Shown: positions 44,446 through 61,705 of the stretch, in pieces | Position numbering within the stretch: position 1 is the first letter of the stretch | How the letters are laid out: every line of letters begins with the position of its first letter | Assembly (NCBI GenBank): GCA_022710715.1 | Contig: JAKLGJ010000004.1 | Span: forward strand, 192,166 to 256,165 | Direction of reading: 5' to 3' | Length of the DNA: 64,000 nt | Source: Candidatus Omnitrophota bacterium | GTDB lineage: Bacteria > Omnitrophota > Gorgyraeia > Gygaellales > Profunditerraquicolaceae | Position numbers and translations under genes: made by a program | Notes under the pieces: generated by a model | Database searches by the model: none | Seen by the model: the letters and a program-made list of their open reading frames with translations, nothing else | What the model was told of the DNA's origin: nothing

Positions 44446-45483
44446 ATGCCCAAGACGCTCAAAGAAATTGCCCGTTTAGTGAACGGTGAGATTGTCGGCG
44501 ATGAGAACCTGAAGATCACGGGCGTAGCGGGGATCCAGGAGGCGTCTGAAGGTGATATCACCTTCCTGGCTAACCCCAAATACCTGCCGTTTCTTCCCGT
44601 GACCAGGGCTTCGGCTGTGATCACGGGACGCTCCGTCGAGTCCGGCGGCAAGACGATCCTGCGCGTCGATAATCCTTCGCTCGCTTTTACCGAAGTGGTT
44701 TCTTTCGTTCTGCCGCAGGAGAAGGTCAAACATCCCGCGGGCGTCCATCCGGGGGCGATCATCAGCGCGACGGCCCGGCTGGGAGCGGGGACGGCTGTCG
44801 GCGCCTGCGCGGTGATAGAAGACGGCGCGACTATCGGAGAGAACAGCGTCATCTACCCGGGTTGTTATGTCGGTCGCAACTGCCGCATCGGCAGCGCGAC
44901 GGTGATTTATCCGAATGTTTCTATCCGCGAGGAAGCGGTTATCGGCAGCCGGGTGATCATTCACAGCGGCGCGGTGATCGGCTCCGACGGGTTCGGGTTC
45001 GTCACGGTTGAGGGGCGGCATCGCAAGATTCCCCAGGTCGGGATCGTCGTGGTCGAGGATGACGTCGAGATCGGCGCGGGAGTGACTATCGACCGCGCCC
45101 GTTTTGATAAGACCGTCATCGGCCAGGGGACCAAGATCGATAACCTGGTGCATATCGCGCATAACGTGATCATCGGCAAGAACTGCCTTATTGTCGCCCA
45201 GGTCGGTATTTCAGGCAGCTCCAGCCTCGGTAATAATGTTATACTCGCCGGACAGGTCGGGGTGGTCGGCCATGTCCATATCGGGGATAACTCCGTGGTC
45301 ATGGCTCAATCCGGGGTGAGTAAATCGCTCGCCGAGAATAGCGCGGTCTGGGGAACGCCGGCCAGGCAAATCGACGTCGCCAAGAAGATCAGCGCGTATA
45401 TCTCGAATTTACCCAAGATGGCCGAAACGATCAAAGAATTGAAACAGAGAATCGCCGAACTTGAAAAAAAGCTAACCGCATAA
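44446..45483 (+). CDS. lpxD: UDP-3-O-(3-hydroxyacyl)glucosamine N-acyltransferase
   Basis: LpxD N-terminal domain and hexapeptide repeats. Confidence 0.88.
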
Positions 45484-49661: not shown

Positions 49662-49684
49662 CCGGGGAACGTCCCCATAGAAGC

Positions 49685-49838
49685 GGATGATAGCTGCGCC
49701 TGTCCCTGCAGATGTGCTGCGCACATCTATGCGCAGGGACACGGCGCGAAACGGATCATAGCTGCGCCTGCCCCTGCAGATGTGCTGCGCACATCTATGC
49801 GCAGGGACACGGCGCGAAACGGATCATAGCTGCGCCTG
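49685..49838 (+). repeat. Tandem 68 bp direct repeat (2.26 copies) ending in the tRNA-Arg 5' end
   Basis: Units begin at 49685, 49753 and 49821 (period 68). Each carries GGAT(G/C)ATAGCTGCGCCTG, identical to the tRNA-Arg leader plus first 7 nt, then a 39 nt hairpin GTCCCTGCAGATGTGC-TGC-GCACATCT-ATGC-GCAGGGAC (49702-49740 and 49770-49808). The third unit continues into the real tRNA. Confidence 0.8.
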
Positions 49839-49905
49839 TAGCTCAATTGGATAGAGCGCCAGCCTTCGGAGCTGGGCGTTGCAGGTTCAAGTCCTGCCAG
49901 GCGCA
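49832..49905 (+). tRNA. tRNA-Arg (anticodon UCG)
   Basis: Cloverleaf: acceptor GCGCCTG/CAGGCGC, D stem GCTC/GAGC, anticodon stem CCAGC/GCTGG with loop CTTCGGA, T arm GCAGG-TTCAAGT-CCTGC. Confidence 0.8.
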
Positions 49906-50816: not shown

Positions 50817-53807
50817 ATGAGCGATCTTTGGCAGGGAACGTTGGAGAAAGTCGACGATTTTCGCTGGCGCATCCCGCCTTCCTATAAGCCCGGCATGCGC
50901 GTGCCGGGCCTTATTTATGCCGACGAGAAGCTCTTAAAAGACATTCTCCGCGACAAAGCCGCGGAGCAGGTCGCCAATGTGGCGTTCCTGCCGGGGATCA
51001 TCAACGCTTCTCTGGCCATGCCGGATATTCACTGGGGCTATGGTTTCCCCATCGGCGGCGTCGCAGCGACGGATATCGAGGCCGGAGGAGTGATCTCGCC
51101 CGGCGGCGTTGGGTTCGATATCAACTGCCTTACCGCTGAATCGCGCGTCTTGCATGCTTTCGGCTATTCTCTGCGTATTGCCGATCTTGAACAGACCTGG
51201 CGGACGAATCGGTTAGCGGTCATGGATTTCCGCCGGGGCAGAAAAGAGGATGCGGCGATCTGCGCGTATATCAAGATGGCGCCGCGAGAAAAGCTCTTTG
51301 AGATAACTACGGTAACGGGGAGGAAAATAAAAGCCACGGCAGATCATCCTTTCTGGACGCAGGACGGCATGGTGCCTCTGAAACGGCTTGCGGCAGGCAA
51401 TCGTGTAGCCCTGTACCCTTTTGAAGGTGTGCCTTTCGAGAAACCGGGCGGGGAGATCATTGTCGACGAAGAAGACGTAGTGCGGTTGCTTGCAGCGCTT
51501 AAAAAGGACTCGGGCGGCAATGCCGGTATCCAGGTTTTGAATCATCTGAAAAAAAGAGGCCTTTTACCGTTGCGCTACGATTCGCCGGCGTTGCCTTATT
51601 TGATCAAGATAGCGGGGTATTGTATCGGCGACGGTAATATCCATTTTGCTAAAAGCCGCGGCAAAGGAGTGACCGGATTCTGGGGGAAGAAAGAAGACCT
51701 GGAGCTCATTCGTAAAGATGTCGCGAAAACCGGGTTCACTTGCTCGCGGGTGTACCGGCGCAACCGCCGGCATGCAATCAACACCCCCTATGATTTGGTT
51801 CAATTCGAGCATCTGGAAGAGTCCTGCAAGGTCGTTTCCAGTTCTTTTTCCGTATTATTGATCTTATTGGGCTGTCCATATGGCAATAAGGCGGAGAAGC
51901 CGTTTTCTGTTCCGCGATGGCTATTCAAAGCTCCGCTTTGGCAGAAGAGATTGTTCCTGGCAGCTTACTTCGGGGCGGAAATGTCATCGCCGAAATCTTT
52001 TCGCGAGCAGGGATATAATCTCTATTGTCCCGTAGTTTCAATGAACAAGAACGGGCTTCTAGCCGACGATGCTATCGCGTTTTTCAAAGATATTTCCACC
52101 CTGTTGACCGAGTTCGGGGTCAGGACGGTCGCGATCAGCGAAAGTCACTCCGGATTTACCAGGAAAGGGACTTTCAACTATCGTATACGGTTGATCCTGG
52201 CCAGCAAAACCGAAGATCTGATAACACTGTACAGCAGGGTAGGATTTGAGTATAATCTTCACCGCAGTTTCCTGGCTAATGCCGCTATTCAGTTCTTGAA
52301 ATACAAACAGCGGATACTCCGGGAACGCGAGGAGAAAAGCGTTCAGGCACAGCGTTTGCATGCCCGGGGCTTCAGTCCCGCCCAGATTACCGAGAGTATC
52401 GGCTCGGAATTCGTGAATCGCCGGTTCATTGAAAGATCTGTTTATGAAGGCAGGAAAACGGGCCCACGCATAAGTTCCGCGGCGTTGAATTTCGTCAGCT
52501 TTATGGATGAGAATACCGCGGGATTAGAGATGTCCGGCATGCTCTGGGACGCGATCGAGACGATCGAAGAATCGGCGTCTCCGGAGTATGTATACGATTT
52601 TACTGTAGGGCATCGGGATCATAATTTTGTTGCCGACACTTTCGTGGTTTCTAACTGCGGGGTCAGGTTGTTGACCACCAACCTGCGCTACGATGACGTC
52701 AAAGACAGGATCAAAGATTTAACCTGCCGGCTCTTTAACGCTATTCCCACCGGCGTCGGATCGAAAGGCGATATCCGGATCAGCGAGAAGGAAGAGCGCA
52801 AGCTCCTGGTCGAAGGAGCGGGTTGGGCGGTCAAACAGGGTTTCGGGGTCCAGGAAGATCTGGAGTGCACTGAAGAATCCGGCGCGATCCAGGGCGCGGA
52901 TCCCGCGGCAGTTTCCGAACGCGCCTATGAGCGCGGCAAGGCCCAATCGGGCACGCTGGGTTCAGGCAACCATTTCCTGGAAGTGCAGGTGATCGACCAG
53001 TTGTATAACCGCGACGCCTGCGATGCCCTTAATCTTGACCAGGGACAGATCACCCTCATGATCCATTCCGGCTCGCGCGGTCTGGGGTATCAGATCTGCG
53101 ACGATTACGTCCGGTCGATGGTGCGTTGTCTGGACAAGTATAAGATCGAAGTGCCGGACCGCCAGCTGGCCTGCGCGCCGGTAACCTCGCCGGAAGGGAA
53201 AGCTTATCTGGCCGCGATGCGCTGCGCGGCCAACTATGCCTGGGCCAACCGGCAATGCCTGATGCATCTGGCGCGGTTGACGTTCCAGGAGTTCTTCGGG
53301 ACTCCCTGGCAGAAGATGCAGATGCGCCTGGTGTATGATGTGGCGCATAACATCGCCAAGATCGAAAAACACACGGTGAACGGGCAGCTCAAGAATGTCT
53401 GCGTGCATCGCAAAGGGGCGACCCGCGCGTTCGGCCCCGGGCATCCGGAACTGCCGCAGCGGTATCGTCAGATGGGCCAGCCGGTGATCATCCCCGGCGA
53501 TATGGGGCGCAATTCTTACTTATTGGTCGGCACGCAGCAAGCGATGGAAGAAACATTCGGCAGCACCTGCCACGGCGCGGGCCGGGTGATGTCGCGCAGC
53601 GCCGCGACCCGGTCCATCGACAGCCGGCAGTTGCTTAAAGATCTGGAATCGAAAGGTATTACGGTGATGGCTGCCGGCAGAGGCACGCTGGTGGAAGAGG
53701 CGCCGGAAGTTTACAAGAACGTCAATGACGTGGTTGATGTAGTGCACAAGGCCGGGCTGTCCACCCGGGTGTGCAGGATGAGACCCCTGGGAGTGATTAA
53801 AGGATAA
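50817..53807 (+). CDS. rtcB: RNA-splicing ligase RtcB interrupted by a large intein
   Basis: Exteins carry GFDIN|[14 protein letters not shown] and GSTCHGAGR RtcB motifs. 996 aa versus about 480 for canonical RtcB. Confidence 0.9.
51126..52655 (+). mobile_element. RtcB intein (510 aa) with LAGLIDADG homing-endonuclease domain
   Basis: Starts with Cys (CLTAESRVL) and block B TADHPF. LAGLIDADG-like [14 protein letters not shown] and [10 protein letters not shown]. Block [16 protein letters not shown] and block G TFVVSN followed by +1 Cys. The penultimate residue is Ser rather than His. Confidence 0.85.
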
Positions 53808-55811: not shown

Positions 55812-55932
55812 GTCTTGTATCCCGGCTCAAGGGTGCGGTTAATCTGTCCAGCTCGTAAACGCTCAGAATTTCCTTCGGAAATTCCATCGCACTCGCTGGA
55901 CGTCACATCTGAATAAAACCTTAAGGAGTTCC

Positions 55933-55953
55933 GGTGGGGTGGCAGAGCGGTTG
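55933..55953 (+). repeat. Orphan copy of the first 21 nt of tRNA-Ser
   Basis: GGTGGGGTGGCAGAGCGGTTG is identical to 56044-56064. No anticodon or T arm follows, so this is not a tRNA. Confidence 0.8.
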
Positions 55954-56043
55954 CGACTGAGCGAAGCGCAGGAGTCCCGTGAACGCAGTGAACGGGAAAT
56001 GCGCTTGCGCATCGTCAGGCGATGCCAATGGCGGAATCTTTCT

Positions 56044-56130
56044 GGTGGGGTGGCAGAGCGGTTGAATGCGGCAGTCTTGAAAACTGTTAAGGGCGCAAGT
56101 CCTTCGAGAGTTCGAATCTCTCCCCCACCG
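56044..56130 (+). tRNA. tRNA-Ser (anticodon UGA)
   Basis: Class II tRNA: acceptor GGTGGGG/CCCCACC, 3 bp D stem with an 11 nt loop, anticodon loop CTTGAAA, 18 nt variable arm, T arm GAGAG-TTCGAAT-CTCTC. Confidence 0.8.
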
Positions 56131-56341
56131 TTTATTTTCAACGGGTTACACCATGATGTTATTGGTAAACAATTCGACGGTGTCCCCGGCAGTATGCCTG
56201 CCTCGGTTCTTTCCGGAATGTGCTTAAAAAGCGGTTCTTTCCTCCGGGCGAAGTGACGGTCGGGGCGGCAATAGTGCAGTTAAGCCTAATGCTGACAATA
56301 ACTAATATCTTTTTTTCGCATCGGGATCTTTAAACTATCTC

Positions 56342-56369
56342 TTGACAATTTTTGAAATTCTGGTATAAA
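56342..56369 (+). promoter_or_regulatory. Sigma70-like promoter upstream of the cheW-mcp genes
   Basis: TTGACA at 56342-56347, a 16 nt spacer and TATAAA at 56364-56369. Confidence 0.45.
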
Positions 56370-56500
56370 AGTGTTAATGATGAATGCTGATTATCCGGGG
56401 GTAATTGGCGTTACAAAGAAGCATTTTTTGTCTACCACCTAGCGAAGAGGTCGGTTCTTTTTCGTGGGGTGGTTTTTTTGTTCTCTAACCGGGATGATAC

Positions 56501-56986
56501 ATGGCTGAAGAGAAAGCGAAAGAGTATCAACTTGTGGTTTTTGCCGTTGGCAATGAAGAGTTTGGCGTGGATATCAGCCAGGTGCGTGAAATCGTGAGGC
56601 TCATGCAGATAGTCAGTCTTCCCAAAGCCTCCGCGTTCATTGAGGGGGTGGTTAACTTACGCGGACAGGTACTGGCGGTTATCGATTTGGCGAAGAAACT
56701 GGGCCTGACGATAAATAAGCGGGGGGATCATTCCAGGATTATCATCGTAGAGGTGGGCGGACATACGGTAGGCATGATCGTGGATTCGGTATCCGAGGTC
56801 TTGAGGCTTTCCGCAAACTGCGCTGAAGATGTCCCGAATCTGGTCAATACCGAAGTGCCGGAGCATTATATCAAAGGTATCGGCAAACTCAAGGATCGCC
56901 TGTTGGTTCTGCTTGATCTTAATAATATAATTACTCCAGAAGAGTTCAAGAACGTTGAACGTCATCTGAAAGCGGTGCCGGCTTAA
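56501..56986 (+). CDS. cheW: Chemotaxis coupling protein CheW
   Basis: CheW-like domain, 161 aa. Confidence 0.85.
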   Translation: MAEEKAKEYQLVVFAVGNEEFGVDISQVREIVRLMQIVSLPKASAFIEGVVNLRGQVLAVIDLAKKLGLTINKRGDHSRIIIVEVGGHTVGMIVDSVSEVLRLSANCAEDVPNLVNTEVPEHYIKGIGKLKDRLLVLLDLNNIITPEEFKNVERHLKAVPA

Positions 56987-59899: not shown

Positions 59900-61705
59900 A
59901 TGCGTGTTTTGATAAGGAGCAGAGAACCGGTGTCGCAAACACAACTTGACGTCAAATTGCTGGAAGTCACCGATAACGCCCTGGCGATCATTTACGCCGC
60001 CTGCCGGCAGTGCTATTCCGATAAATTTGCCGGCGATATCTTTGACGACGGCAGCGCCGATCCCGGCAAAGCCGGGGAGTTCATCCGTAAAGTGGTCGCT
60101 TCCGGCCATGAAAGCCCGCTCGAGCATGCTAAATTCACCTTTGCTATCCAGGGCGTGTCGCGGGCGCTGACCCATCAGCTGGTGCGTCACCGGATCGCTT
60201 CTTTCTGTTTAACGGGAGATACGATAATCAAGGGAGCACGGAATGACAGTGCTCGGTCGTATAAAAAGTATACCTTGAAATCGTTGTATGAGAGAATGCT
60301 GACCCCGCACGGCAGGTCTCGTTTAAAACTGATCAGGTTGAATGCTTACGATGAGCAGGGGAAGGTATTTGATCGGGGGAAGATCAAAACAATTCTGTAC
60401 ACCGGCAGGCAAATGGTATGGCGGGTGAAGTTGACTAACGGCCAGAGCATAAAAGCCACGATTAATCATCGGTTTTTAACGCGAGATGGCTGGTTGCCTT
60501 TGGAAGATATTATACGCGTCAGACCTCAACTGGGCGTTAACGGTATTGCTTGCCGGCATCCGAGTTTTGCTGTGCTTAGAAACAGGCAATGGCTGGAGGA
60601 GCAATATAGTCTCAAGAATCTGAAGCAAGAAACTATTGCGAAGCTGATTGGATGCTCCGGTCATACGGTGAGAAGCTGGGTATTCAAGCATGGTTTACAG
60701 AAAGAAATCGGCGGTTTGCATGGGCATCCTCCCAATCGTGGATATCATTGGAAGCTTAATCGCAATCGCACCCTTGAGGAGAAAAAGGCGATTTCCGAGA
60801 GGATGAAAGGCCCGCGCAATCCTATGTGGAAGGGGGGAGTTACGCGGTTGGACGTTACCTTGCGCAAAATGGTATCTCCCGAAGTCCGTAAGGACATTTA
60901 TAGGCGAGATGGTTTTCAATGTCGCCTGTGCAAGCAGGTTGGAGGCCGTTTGACGCTGCATCATCGGGTGCCGCTCTATGTCAATCCGGTCGACCCGGCG
61001 GATACAGATAATTTAGTGACTCTTTGCAGGAAATGCCATTTTAAAGTGAACAATCATGAAATGGAATATATGAATATTTTCGGAATTGACCCTATACCCT
61101 ATCATGCCAGGTCAAGCGGTTGTTTTCGAGTCATAAAATGGGTAGAGATAGCCAGTATTGAGTGTGCAGGGATCGAAGACACGTACGATATAGAGATGCA
61201 GGCTCCGCACCATAATTTTGTAGCCAACGGTTTTGTCGTTCATAATTCACAGCAGTCGCAACGCTATGTCAAGGAGTCCCAGTTCGATTACATCATCCCG
61301 CCTTCCATCGAGAAGGATCCGCGCAAGAAAGAGGTTTTTCTCCAGACCATGAAGGAGATACAGGAACAGTACAATAAACTGCTCGCGTTGTACAAAGAAG
61401 GCGGACAGCAGGGGGAAGTCGCCAACCAGGACGCGCGTTTTGTCCTGCCGCAGGCCGCCGAGACCAAAATCGTGGTAAGCATGAACTGCCGGGAATTGCT
61501 GCATTTTTTCAAGCACCGCTGCTGCGTGCGGGCCCAGTGGGAGATCCGGGCTTTAGCCGGCCGCATGCTGGCCATGGCCAGGGAGAAACTGCCCGAAATC
61601 TTCGGCGCCGCCGGCGCGAAGTGCGAATCGCTTGGGTATTGTCCGGAAGGGGAGAAATTCAGCTGCGGTAAATATCCCTCCAAAGATAAAGTCCTGAAAG
61701 TGTAA
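59900..61705 (+). CDS. thyX: Flavin-dependent thymidylate synthase ThyX interrupted by an intein
   Basis: The ThyX signature RHRIASF|SQQSQRY is split by the insert. Remaining exteins total about 254 aa. Confidence 0.88.
   Translation: MRVLIRSREPVSQTQLDVKLLEVTDNALAIIYAACRQCYSDKFAGDIFDDGSADPGKAGEFIRKVVASGHESPLEHAKFTFAIQGVSRALTHQLVRHRIASFCLTGDTIIKGARNDSARSYKKYTLKSLYERMLTPHGRSRLKLIRLNAYDEQGKVFDRGKIKTILYTGRQMVWRVKLTNGQSIKATINHRFLTRDGWLPLEDIIRVRPQLGVNGIACRHPSFAVLRNRQWLEEQYSLKNLKQETIAKLIGCSGHTVRSWVFKHGLQKEIGGLHGHPPNRGYHWKLNRNRTLEEKKAISERMKGPRNPMWKGGVTRLDVTLRKMVSPEVRKDIYRRDGFQCRLCKQVGGRLTLHHRVPLYVNPVDPADTDNLVTLCRKCHFKVNNHEMEYMNIFGIDPIPYHARSSGCFRVIKWVEIASIECAGIEDTYDIEMQAPHHNFVANGFVVHNSQQSQRYVKESQFDYIIPPSIEKDPRKKEVFLQTMKEIQEQYNKLLALYKEGGQQGEVANQDARFVLPQAAETKIVVSMNCRELLHFFKHRCCVRAQWEIRALAGRMLAMAREKLPEIFGAAGAKCESLGYCPEGEKFSCGKYPSKDKVLKV
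60206..61246 (+). mobile_element. ThyX intein (347 aa) with HNH homing-endonuclease domain
   Basis: Starts with Cys (CLTGDTII), block B-like KATINHRF, an HNH module (CRLC...HHRVP...N...CRKCH), block F YDIEMQAPHHNFVA and block G GFVVHN followed by +1 Ser. Confidence 0.85.

Follow-up and report, generated by a model that had tools for sequence, protein, structure and literature searches.

In a 64,000-nt stretch of DNA from a Candidatus Omnitrophota bacterium, referred to here as the window, a 21-nt copy of the 5′ end of tRNA-Ser(UGA) is situated upstream of the complete gene. This copy is probably the original 5′ end of the gene, stranded by the insertion of a small foreign Omnitrophota cassette whose open reading frame has since been deleted, with a dead relic left in place (a probability of roughly 0.6). 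By sequence comparison, the presence of an insertion relative to close relatives, the homology of one insert module and its junction to cassettes that carry an open reading frame, and the recurrent association of this reading frame with tRNA genes and partial tRNA duplications can be taken as demonstrated.

The sequence GGTGGGGTGGCAGAGCGGTTG is present exactly twice in the 64 kb, at positions 55933-55953 and 56044-56064, even when up to three mismatches are allowed, and the mean number of matches expected by chance is 0.00 (100 shuffles). The downstream copy constitutes bases 1-21 of tRNA-Ser(UGA) (56044-56130), which scores 58.3 bits with the Rfam tRNA model and is also called by ARAGORN. The full repeat at this locus is 25 nt long, TTCC or TTCT followed by the 21 nt, with 24 of 25 positions identical, and its two copies start 111 nt apart. 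Seven independent assemblies (JGI, ENA, Logan, NCBI) agree at every base of the locus, and therefore the repeat arrangement is not an assembly artefact. A sequence-only reading of the window had proposed that the tRNA-Ser start is repeated 111 bp upstream of the gene, and the two exact copies, the shuffling result and the agreement of the seven assemblies bear this out. It had also regarded the copy as an orphan 5′ fragment. Here too the data agree: the region 55812-56060 has no Rfam match at E ≤ 10, and ARAGORN, set to permit introns of 0-200 nt at a relaxed threshold, calls the downstream gene alone (56043-56131) and leaves the fragment uncalled. Neither search finds an intron-containing tRNA at 55933-56043, the observation that the sequence-only reading had named as evidence against itself.

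The features of the locus are as follows.

55866..55884, + strand: leader hairpin GAATTTCCTTCGGAAATTC, native to the locus and ending 48 nt before the fragment; identifies the leader of the ancestral tRNA
55929..55953, + strand: repeat copy R1, TTCC and tRNA-Ser bases 1-21; read as the displaced original 5′ end of the gene
55954..55997, + strand: conserved 44-nt module, inserted after the D-loop sequence ..GGTTG, position 21
55954-55979, + strand: 26-nt 5′ arm of the module, CGACTGAGCGAAGCGCAGGAGTCCCG; its last 5 nt begin the 23-nt hairpin
55975-55997, + strand: module hairpin TCCCGT-GA-AC-GCA-GT-GA-ACGGGA, 23 nt, with internal tandem G.A mismatches
55998..56003, + strand: AATGCG, a copy of tRNA-Ser bases 22-27 directly after the module, as read from the sequence
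56004..56039, + strand: 36-nt remainder of the insert, CTTGCGCATCGTCAGGCGATGCCAATGGCGGAATCT, with a small hairpin GCATCG/CGATGC at 56009-56025
56040..56064, + strand: repeat copy R2, TTCT and tRNA bases 1-21; start of the working gene
56044..56130, + strand: complete tRNA-Ser(UGA), with no encoded CCA; identical to the tRNA of L025

The 36-nt remainder at 56004-56039 stands where intact cassettes (described below) have a GIY-YIG open reading frame, an inverse hairpin and a leader, and shows no significant similarity to any part of them. The link between the window and the cassettes consists of the 44-nt module and the junction; the other 36 nt match nothing. No GIY-YIG open reading frame is found in the 64 kb when an HMM of 120 homologues is compared with the six-frame translation. 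The tRNA bases 22-27 that follow the module were overlooked in the sequence-only reading, as was the ancestral position of the upstream copy, which is discussed below.

Upstream of tRNA-Ser(UGA) are the genes for archease, RtcB, SerRS and a membrane protein, and downstream are those for CheW, MCP, a Cache sensor, ThyX, a radical SAM protein and GcvT. In two assemblies, a spurious gene of 105 aa was called over tRNA-Ser. A scan for sigma-70-like promoters gives no prediction upstream of the fragment or between the fragment and the tRNA, and thus transcription of the tRNA probably continues from the serS operon.

Comparison with related genomes shows which of the two repeat copies is the older. 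The neighbouring membrane protein, of 243 aa, has all its relatives in Candidatus Omnitrophota, and exact-protein matches of the neighbouring gene come from identical strains only. The gene order tRNA-Arg(UCG), tRNA-Lys(CUU), archease, RtcB, SerRS, membrane protein, tRNA-Ser(UGA) is conserved phylum-wide, and tRNA-Ser(CGA) and tRNA-Ser(GGA) often come after tRNA-Ser(UGA). Of the 16 species-level relatives, 12 have a gap of 9-34 nt between the end of the membrane-protein match and the start of tRNA-Ser; in the window, 232 nt lie between the membrane-protein stop codon and tRNA-Ser. The closest relative found, L024 (relatives and loci are designated here by L numbers), has a membrane protein 87% and a SerRS 92% identical to those of the window. 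It has an equivalent leader hairpin, again 48 nt from the tRNA start, and its tRNA runs without interruption from the position at which the window has the fragment. In L025 (membrane protein 61%, SerRS 79% identical), the same leader precedes a tRNA that is also uninterrupted and is identical to the window tRNA-Ser. A three-way alignment of the window, L024 and L025 reveals a single 111-nt block, present in the window only. Presence is patchy, with the site filled in the window and empty in these close relatives. Since both relatives are uninterrupted and the 111-nt block is confined to the window, the upstream 21-mer can be taken as the stranded start of the original gene. As judged from the alignment, the window carries a 111-bp insertion at D-loop position 21/22 of tRNA-Ser, and it is the upstream copy R1, not the downstream copy R2, that occupies the ancestral position.

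The 44-nt module has counterparts in distant Omnitrophota genomes. Its 26-nt arm is identical at 25 of 26 positions to the arms in L147, L121 and L078, and at 21-23 of 26 positions to those in L022, L016 and L064. When fragment and arm are taken together, the window is identical to L147 at 45 of 48 positions and to L121 at 44 of 48. The hosts of these two matching junctions are distant from the window, with membrane proteins 25-37% and SerRS 64-65% identical (25% and 64%, respectively, in L147). Near-identity in distant hosts, together with absence from the nearest relatives, argues for an element with constrained ends that has spread horizontally and was not inherited vertically.

The module is always found within a truncated 5′ copy of tRNA-Ser, just upstream of a complete tRNA-Ser and on the tRNA strand. 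It is at position 21/22 in the window, L121, L145 and L147, and at anticodon position 35/36 in L022, L016, L064 and L078 (termed type-B loci), with a variant form in L173. In all seven of the other loci that were read through the module, which leaves aside L145 as its contig ends there, the tRNA sequence is taken up again with its next base and continues for 5-10 nt. The sequence that precedes the module is GTTG at three loci, CTTG at two, ATTG at two and CTGG at one (n = 8, all tRNA-Ser loops), and the insertion follows T-K-G in every case read through the module. The host tRNA stem is kept on both sides in all cases. Loop length and loop sequence vary freely; compared with the canonical GA hairpin, that of the window is shorter and has its G.A pairs at a different offset.

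A second copy of the module is not found in the 64-kb window with nhmmer, and no Rfam family matches it, either in a 10-kb region or in 249 nt searched with permissive filters. A pattern scan of metagenomes with GAGCGAANCGNNGGANTCCCG gave at least 119 matches, mostly chance occurrences in GC-rich coding DNA or copies of a palindromic repeat, GTCATYCYGAGCGAAGCGAAGGA..; among the matches listed, L064, L078, L121 and L145 are relevant, and possibly L124 and L126. The palindromic repeat is widespread and looks unrelated. A viral scan for the module produced one match, attributed to chance. The likeness between the module hairpin and a hairpin at 44594-44629 of the window, within lpxD, was likewise put down to chance. 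The 26-nt arm is similar to the tRNA-Ser D-arm sequence CTGAGCG[GTTG]AAGCG.

The module may represent the true left end of the cassette. It may also be a separate miniature element (MITE) that inserted into a duplicated, dispensable pseudo-copy, and the strict conservation of the 26-nt arm could reflect a host function. Related to this last point is an unlikely alternative, that fragment and module together form a conserved cis-acting or small RNA maintained by selection, perhaps a processing signal, an acceptor 3′-strand decoy or a regulator of maturation. An arm that is almost invariant across distant genomes, a constant strand, a position upstream of and contiguous with complete tRNA-Ser, and a host stem always retained on both sides would fit such a role, and the whole precursor folds somewhat better than shuffled sequences (z = -2.35). 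The folding of the 111-nt unit alone, however, does not stand out from that of shuffled sequences (z = -1.39, 18 of 200). In addition, the distribution is patchy, as the insert is missing in the two closest relatives and in most of the 16 species-level relatives; the absence of an Rfam family and the freely varying loop also speak against a functional RNA. Finally, intact copies continue with a nuclease open reading frame and repeated pieces of tRNA, and have the look of a mobile cassette.

These intact versions are found at the same syntenic site in L147, L121 and L173. They begin with tRNA-Ser bases 1-21 or 1-35, followed by the arm and a ‘GA’ hairpin (TCCC-GA-G...C-GA-GGGA) and by tRNA bases 22-31 or 36-43. 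After a further 8-12 nt come the GIY-YIG open reading frame, an inverse ‘TC’ hairpin that overlaps the stop codon, an AT-rich leader and the complete tRNA. The open reading frame encodes 86-91 aa in these intact copies, with a GIY-YIG catalytic domain (Pfam E = 1e-19), and the proteins of the family, 81-91 aa long, align end to end with the single-domain UPF0213 structures PDB 1zg2 and 1ywl. A C-terminal DNA-binding domain is absent from the cassette reading frames, which fall in the single-domain UPF0213/bacterial Slx1-like clade. The UPF0213 clade has been described as having no auxiliary domains, and its proteins have been treated as mostly vertically inherited and of repair type, not as homing enzymes (PMC1564403). 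The module is not part of the translated sequence of N-terminally extended GIY-YIG homologues.

Homologous inserts with the GIY-YIG open reading frame are present in L121, L147, L173 and L172. L173 has two perfect 439-nt units (439/439 identical), and the leader that precedes unit 1 is not the one found within the units, which indicates that the leader and the tRNA 5′ segment belong to the cassette. L172 displays the same layout in another, untyped tRNA, with the open reading frame present and a 22-nt repeat that consists of 7 nt of leader and tRNA bases 1-15. The 13 GA and TC hairpins that flank the open reading frames share an invariant TCCCGAG/CGAGGGA foot and show four covarying stem pairs, with 15 double-sided changes compared with 4.3 expected (0 of 500 shuffles). 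Because the foot served as a selection criterion, the stem covariation alone is independent evidence.

Homologues of the L121 open reading frame at 49% identity (L011) and at 65-81% identity are all beside or inside tRNA genes. The sites are within tRNA-Ser; between two tRNA-Ser genes, with no fragment (L011); in the untyped tRNA (L172); between tRNA-Val and tRNA-Asp (L151, L152 and L154); and after tRNA-Pro, with repeated 3′ fragments (L148). Partial tRNA duplications, from 22 to about 100 nt long, are found at three of these five site types. The open reading frame between tRNA-Val and tRNA-Asp is syntenic in three genomes, and thus is stable at that site. More distant homologues (48-63% identical), found on viral and other contigs, have no tRNA neighbours.

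At the type-B loci, the stranded fragment represents a different tRNA-Ser allele from that of the adjoining complete gene, and it matches the allele used by relatives at that locus: the L016 fragment is of the L015 type and the L022 fragment of the L008 type. L008 itself has a fragment of the L012/L019 type, without the module. Since the type-B fragments match the allele of the relatives, the complete gene is the newcomer. Such newcomer genes fit cassettes that bring their own tRNA or tRNA 5′ segment.

Within the window, a second locus with a repeat-insert-repeat layout is found at tRNA-Arg(UCG).

49680..49839, + strand: array upstream of tRNA-Arg(UCG), 2.35 tandem units of 68 nt, repeat-insert-repeat layout

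The two full units (49680-49747 and 49748-49815) are 96% identical, and a third start of 24 nt runs into tRNA-Arg(UCG) at 49832-49905. Each unit consists of a 24-nt repeat (16 nt of leader and tRNA bases 1-8), a 39-nt hairpin and ACGGCGC. The hairpin, GTCCCTGC..GCAGGGAC, is perfect, and its first two bases are tRNA bases 7-8; the fold has z = -5.7. In the five relatives whose fetched flank reaches the upstream stop codon, tRNA-Arg(UCG) begins 3-27 nt past that stop. Further cases with no open reading frame are L017, at tRNA-Arg(ACG), and L020, at tRNA-Lys. The inserts at these three loci cannot be aligned to the Ser module, and in each of them the tRNA start recurs in inverted form at the end of the spacer. 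Repeat lengths are 13-25 nt, and 22-25 nt in four of five loci. A shared origin of the Arg-type and Ser inserts is suggested by layout, repeat lengths, insertion in tRNA loops and the TCCC..GGGA foot alone. That 5′ fragments recur at tRNA genes, as the sequence-only reading had supposed from the tRNA-Arg array and tRNA-Ser, holds well beyond the window: fragments are present at tRNA-Arg in the window, at tRNA-Arg(ACG) of L017, tRNA-Lys of L020 and the untyped tRNA of L172, and at tRNA-Ser in L022, L016, L064, L078, L121, L147 and L173.

The array at tRNA-Arg, the two 439-nt units of L173 and three 72-nt tandem units in L154 indicate that unequal crossing-over acts on such loci. These arrays of identical units are what would be expected if local slippage, unequal crossing-over or template switching had produced the duplication, with the spacer as filler and no mobile element involved; the inverted copies of the tRNA start in the Arg, L017 and L020 spacers are likewise of the kind that quasi-palindrome template switching gives. 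As the origin of the tRNA-Ser insert this is improbable, and it is already largely refuted by homology between genomes. A local accident cannot give the same arm and the same junction in genomes whose SerRS are 64% identical, and leaves unexplained the arm after position 35 in other tRNA-Ser alleles. Moreover, the spacer sequence occurs just once in the window, and its matches lie in distant genomes. The sequence-only reading had offered two mechanisms, template switching during repair and an element that targets or duplicates tRNA 5′ halves. Of these, purely local template switching is disfavoured, given the shared arm and junction and their absence from the closest relatives; an element is favoured, as the spacer, 90 nt long, is foreign and homologous to the left end of the GIY-YIG cassettes.

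An element of a more familiar kind also appears improbable as the source of the repeats. In that case, an integrative element that targets tRNA genes would have been largely deleted since, and the 25-nt repeats would be its attL/attR cores. A direct repeat of 20-25 nt at a tRNA gene is regarded as the classic signature of such elements, and in L147 a large serine recombinase gene overlaps the 3′ end of the tRNA-Ser. However, the repeat spans -4 to +21 and thus comprises the 5′ end and leader instead of the usual 3′ part of the gene, and no tyrosine or serine recombinase or transposase is found in about 6 kb upstream and 8 kb downstream in the window (Pfam and open reading frame survey). Intact relatives have about 0.4 kb between the repeats, which codes for a GIY-YIG protein and not a recombinase. 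Removal of 55954-56064 would give the exact mature sequence, and RtcB and archease are conserved in the gene cluster, yet it is very improbable that 55933-55953 is an alternative 5′ exon from which 111 nt are cut by an endonuclease, with joining by the nearby RtcB/archease: the downstream gene is whole as it stands, with no need of splicing, neither covariance nor intron-aware searches call the fragment, the acceptor strand of type-B fragments mismatches the downstream 3′ strand, and bacteria are not known to have a tRNA splicing endonuclease.

If the 21-nt copy is indeed the 5′ end of tRNA-Ser stranded by a cassette, the cassette would have entered the D-loop after GGTTG, at position 21/22, after the split from the L024 lineage. 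It would have supplied a leader and a fresh tRNA 5′ segment, or a whole tRNA, such that a complete gene was rebuilt downstream and the original 5′ end was left as a pseudo-fragment. An essential gene can tolerate the insertion in this way, as it regains a complete tRNA downstream. The nuclease open reading frame, whose former presence we infer, and most of the window cassette would later have been deleted. What is left would be the 25-nt repeat, the 44-nt module, tRNA bases 22-27, 36 nt, and the repeat with the rest of the tRNA. With respect to the origin of the repeats, a plausible route is that the nuclease makes breaks in tRNA loops and these are repaired from a cassette with its own tRNA 5′ segment; arrays would then arise by later unequal crossing-over and relics by deletion.

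The GIY-YIG protein presumably drives this mobility. The complete tRNA keeps the putative target TTG^AA, and therefore a simple homing-immunity logic fails. Structure-specific recognition of the hairpins is likelier than classical sequence-specific homing, given that UPF0213 proteins do not possess a DNA-binding domain. The relic in the window is probably inert. Judging from general tRNA biology, it would be transcribed within the tRNA leader and removed by the RNase P cut at 56044.

A broader proposal can be put forward tentatively, and we consider it rather less probable than not. Minimal UPF0213/Slx1-like GIY-YIG nucleases may be the mobility enzymes of hairpin-ended cassettes of about 0.4 kb that insert into tRNA loops in Omnitrophota. 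Such cassettes would rebuild the gene and ride on the tRNA promoter, would leave fragments, relics and arrays behind, and would drive serial replacement of tRNA alleles; the window would then contain two dead copies, one at tRNA-Ser and one at tRNA-Arg. The family looks like a new form of homing-type selfish cassette. UPF0213-type cassettes in bacterial tRNA genes were not encountered in searches of the open literature, and the class looks to be undescribed so far.

For the window itself, the scar is harmless, and it accounts for the 232-nt gap, the spurious 105-aa call and the orphan fragment. In a wider sense, a whole uncultured phylum appears to harbour small nuclease cassettes that settle in essential tRNA genes yet leave the cell alive, as they bring a replacement for the displaced part of the tRNA. 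UPF0213/Slx1-like nucleases have so far been regarded as housekeeping proteins with no assigned function. If the broader proposal is true, this large orphan family gains a biological role, and the mobile introns of fungal mitochondria that carry gene fragments gain a bacterial counterpart. It would also provide a mechanism for the horizontal replacement of tRNA alleles, and a source of the tRNA pseudo-fragments and hairpin arrays that confuse the annotation of metagenome-assembled genomes.

Several known systems share properties with the cassettes. In E. coli tyrT, 178-bp tandem repeats each contain the last 19 nt of tRNA-Tyr. Here too, orphan tRNA fragments are repeated by a tRNA gene and amplified through unequal crossing-over, but the tyrT fragments are 3′ fragments, are found downstream of the gene and are not accompanied by a conserved foreign module or nuclease gene.

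The cassettes also resemble REP/REPIN-RAYT systems and IS200/IS605 elements, as hairpins with covarying stems and an invariant foot are oppositely oriented around a small nuclease gene, and the module, at eight sites that are all tRNA-Ser loops, appears to insert after a short motif, T-K-G, without a duplication of its own. RAYT and TnpA, however, are HUH-Y1 enzymes, and REPs are not tied to tRNA genes and carry no target-gene segments. The cassettes encode a GIY-YIG protein instead of HUH-Y1, are linked to tRNA genes and carry segments of the target gene; in the fetched loci, no gene for TnpA or RAYT was noticed beside any of them.

Integrative elements that target tRNA genes and have direct repeats there were reportedly reviewed or described by Williams in 2002. 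As in the cassettes, a direct repeat of part of the tRNA flanks the insert, and the element supplies the duplicated part and keeps the gene intact. These elements depend on tyrosine or serine integrases, extend over kilobases and in nearly all cases duplicate the 3′ part of the gene, whereas the cassettes duplicate the 5′ part, have no integrase and measure about 0.4 kb.

Among phage genes, segB of T4 is a GIY-YIG homing gene in a tRNA gene cluster (PMC2330249). Like the cassettes, it is a GIY-YIG gene among tRNA genes, has a patchy distribution and is presumed to spread by cutting alleles that do not have it, into which it would be copied together with flanking sequence. Enzymes of the SegB/I-TevI type have two domains, including one for DNA binding, and their homing does not give target duplications. 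The cassette open reading frames, in contrast, encode the catalytic domain only, and are accompanied by inverted flanking hairpins and by tRNA 5′ repeats of 22-100 nt.

Mobile introns of organelles offer a further parallel. In Allomyces, Paquin and colleagues are said to have described, in 1994, an insertion in atp6 with a GIY-YIG open reading frame and a duplicated gene end. In such organellar systems, as in the cassettes, the invaded gene has its start or end duplicated on the selfish insert, a full gene is rebuilt beside the insert, the resident piece becomes a pseudo-fragment, and foreign alleles may replace part of the host gene. The organellar cases, however, are found in organelles and mostly lie within self-splicing introns of protein genes, whereas the present case is found in a bacterial chromosome and in a tRNA gene. 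The cassettes differ in addition by having no intron ribozyme, a minimal GIY-YIG protein of the UPF0213 type and hairpin ends.

The 5′-side tRNA duplications have a counterpart on the 3′ side. On a contig from the same metagenome as the window contig (L148, 1738-2350), the final ~20 nt of tRNA-Pro(GGG) occur twice more downstream of the gene, accompanied by two GA hairpins, which represent one of the two inverse orientations of the hairpins that flank GIY-YIG ORFs, and by a GIY-YIG ORF itself, the small UPF0213-type nuclease gene of the intact tRNA-gene cassettes. The first 3′ copy is exact and includes part of the trailer; the second has diverged. Additional tRNA debris is found at the tRNA-Ser locus in other genomes. 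The 5′ half of another tRNA-Ser allele is fused to ..GAATCCCGCACC at L008 1293-1352, and a 3′-end-like motif, GGTTTCGAATCCCGCACC, which is the same as that in L008, is present between two tRNA-Ser genes at L019 4330-4369. A further locus shows a recombinase gene that overlaps the 3′ end of tRNA-Ser:

L147, 2378-3835, minus strand: gene for a large serine recombinase (Resolvase, Recombinase, Zn_ribbon_recom)

A second, unrelated element probably uses the same tRNA-Ser gene.

The 44-nt module that follows the tRNA-Ser fragment in the window consists of a 26-nt 5′ arm and a hairpin. The core of the 5′ arm is common to a palindromic repeat, GTCATYCYGAGCGAAGCGAAGGAWTCCCG..., which is widespread on non-Omnitrophota contigs from soil and sediment and is found at many loci among the matches listed (L027-L146; e.g., L042, L071, L079, L093, L096, L111, L125 and L130). 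The arm also contains GCGAAGC, a very stable DNA mini-hairpin. In addition, the arm resembles the D-arm of tRNA-Ser in a shortened form.

At the translated level, one open reading frame starts inside the fragment and spans the whole of tRNA-Ser:

Window 55939-56256: 105-aa ORF

Two public assemblies, L003 and L007, list it among their genes. It shows no Pfam match and is almost certainly spurious. An AAGGAG box is situated 5 nt upstream of a GTG at 55934, and this GTG opens an ORF of only eight codons whose stop is the TGA of the module.

The tRNA-Ser locus is flanked by two genes that have been invaded by inteins:

Window 50817-53807: RtcB, 996 aa, with intein
Window 59900-61705: ThyX, with intein and HNH endonuclease domain

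Selfish elements of the nuclease type are frequent in this stretch. Upstream of cheW (window 56343-56500) there is a promoter near consensus (TTGACA, 17 nt, TATAAA) and then a 5′ UTR of ~120 nt. The UTR is closed at about 56425-56480 by a terminator-like hairpin, ACCACC...GGTGGT plus T7, with the cheW start at 56501 just after it. The UTR has no match in Rfam; this arrangement could be an attenuator or riboswitch.

Hairpins are also repeated away from the window. At L154 247-450, three 72-nt units, each a TC hairpin (the opposite orientation) plus leader-like sequence, are in tandem upstream of the ATP synthase c-subunit gene; therefore, hairpin-plus-leader units amplify at non-tRNA genes as well. 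L174/L175 represent the 20 kb surrounding a GIY-YIG ORF between tRNA-Val and tRNA-Asp. Here a 43-nt hairpin, TCCCGGAYNN-AGATAAAAAATGGTTAACGTAAA-NNRTCCGGGA, has seven intergenic copies, in which the loop is conserved and stem changes are compensatory. It is a REP-like family with the TCCC..GGGA foot in common.
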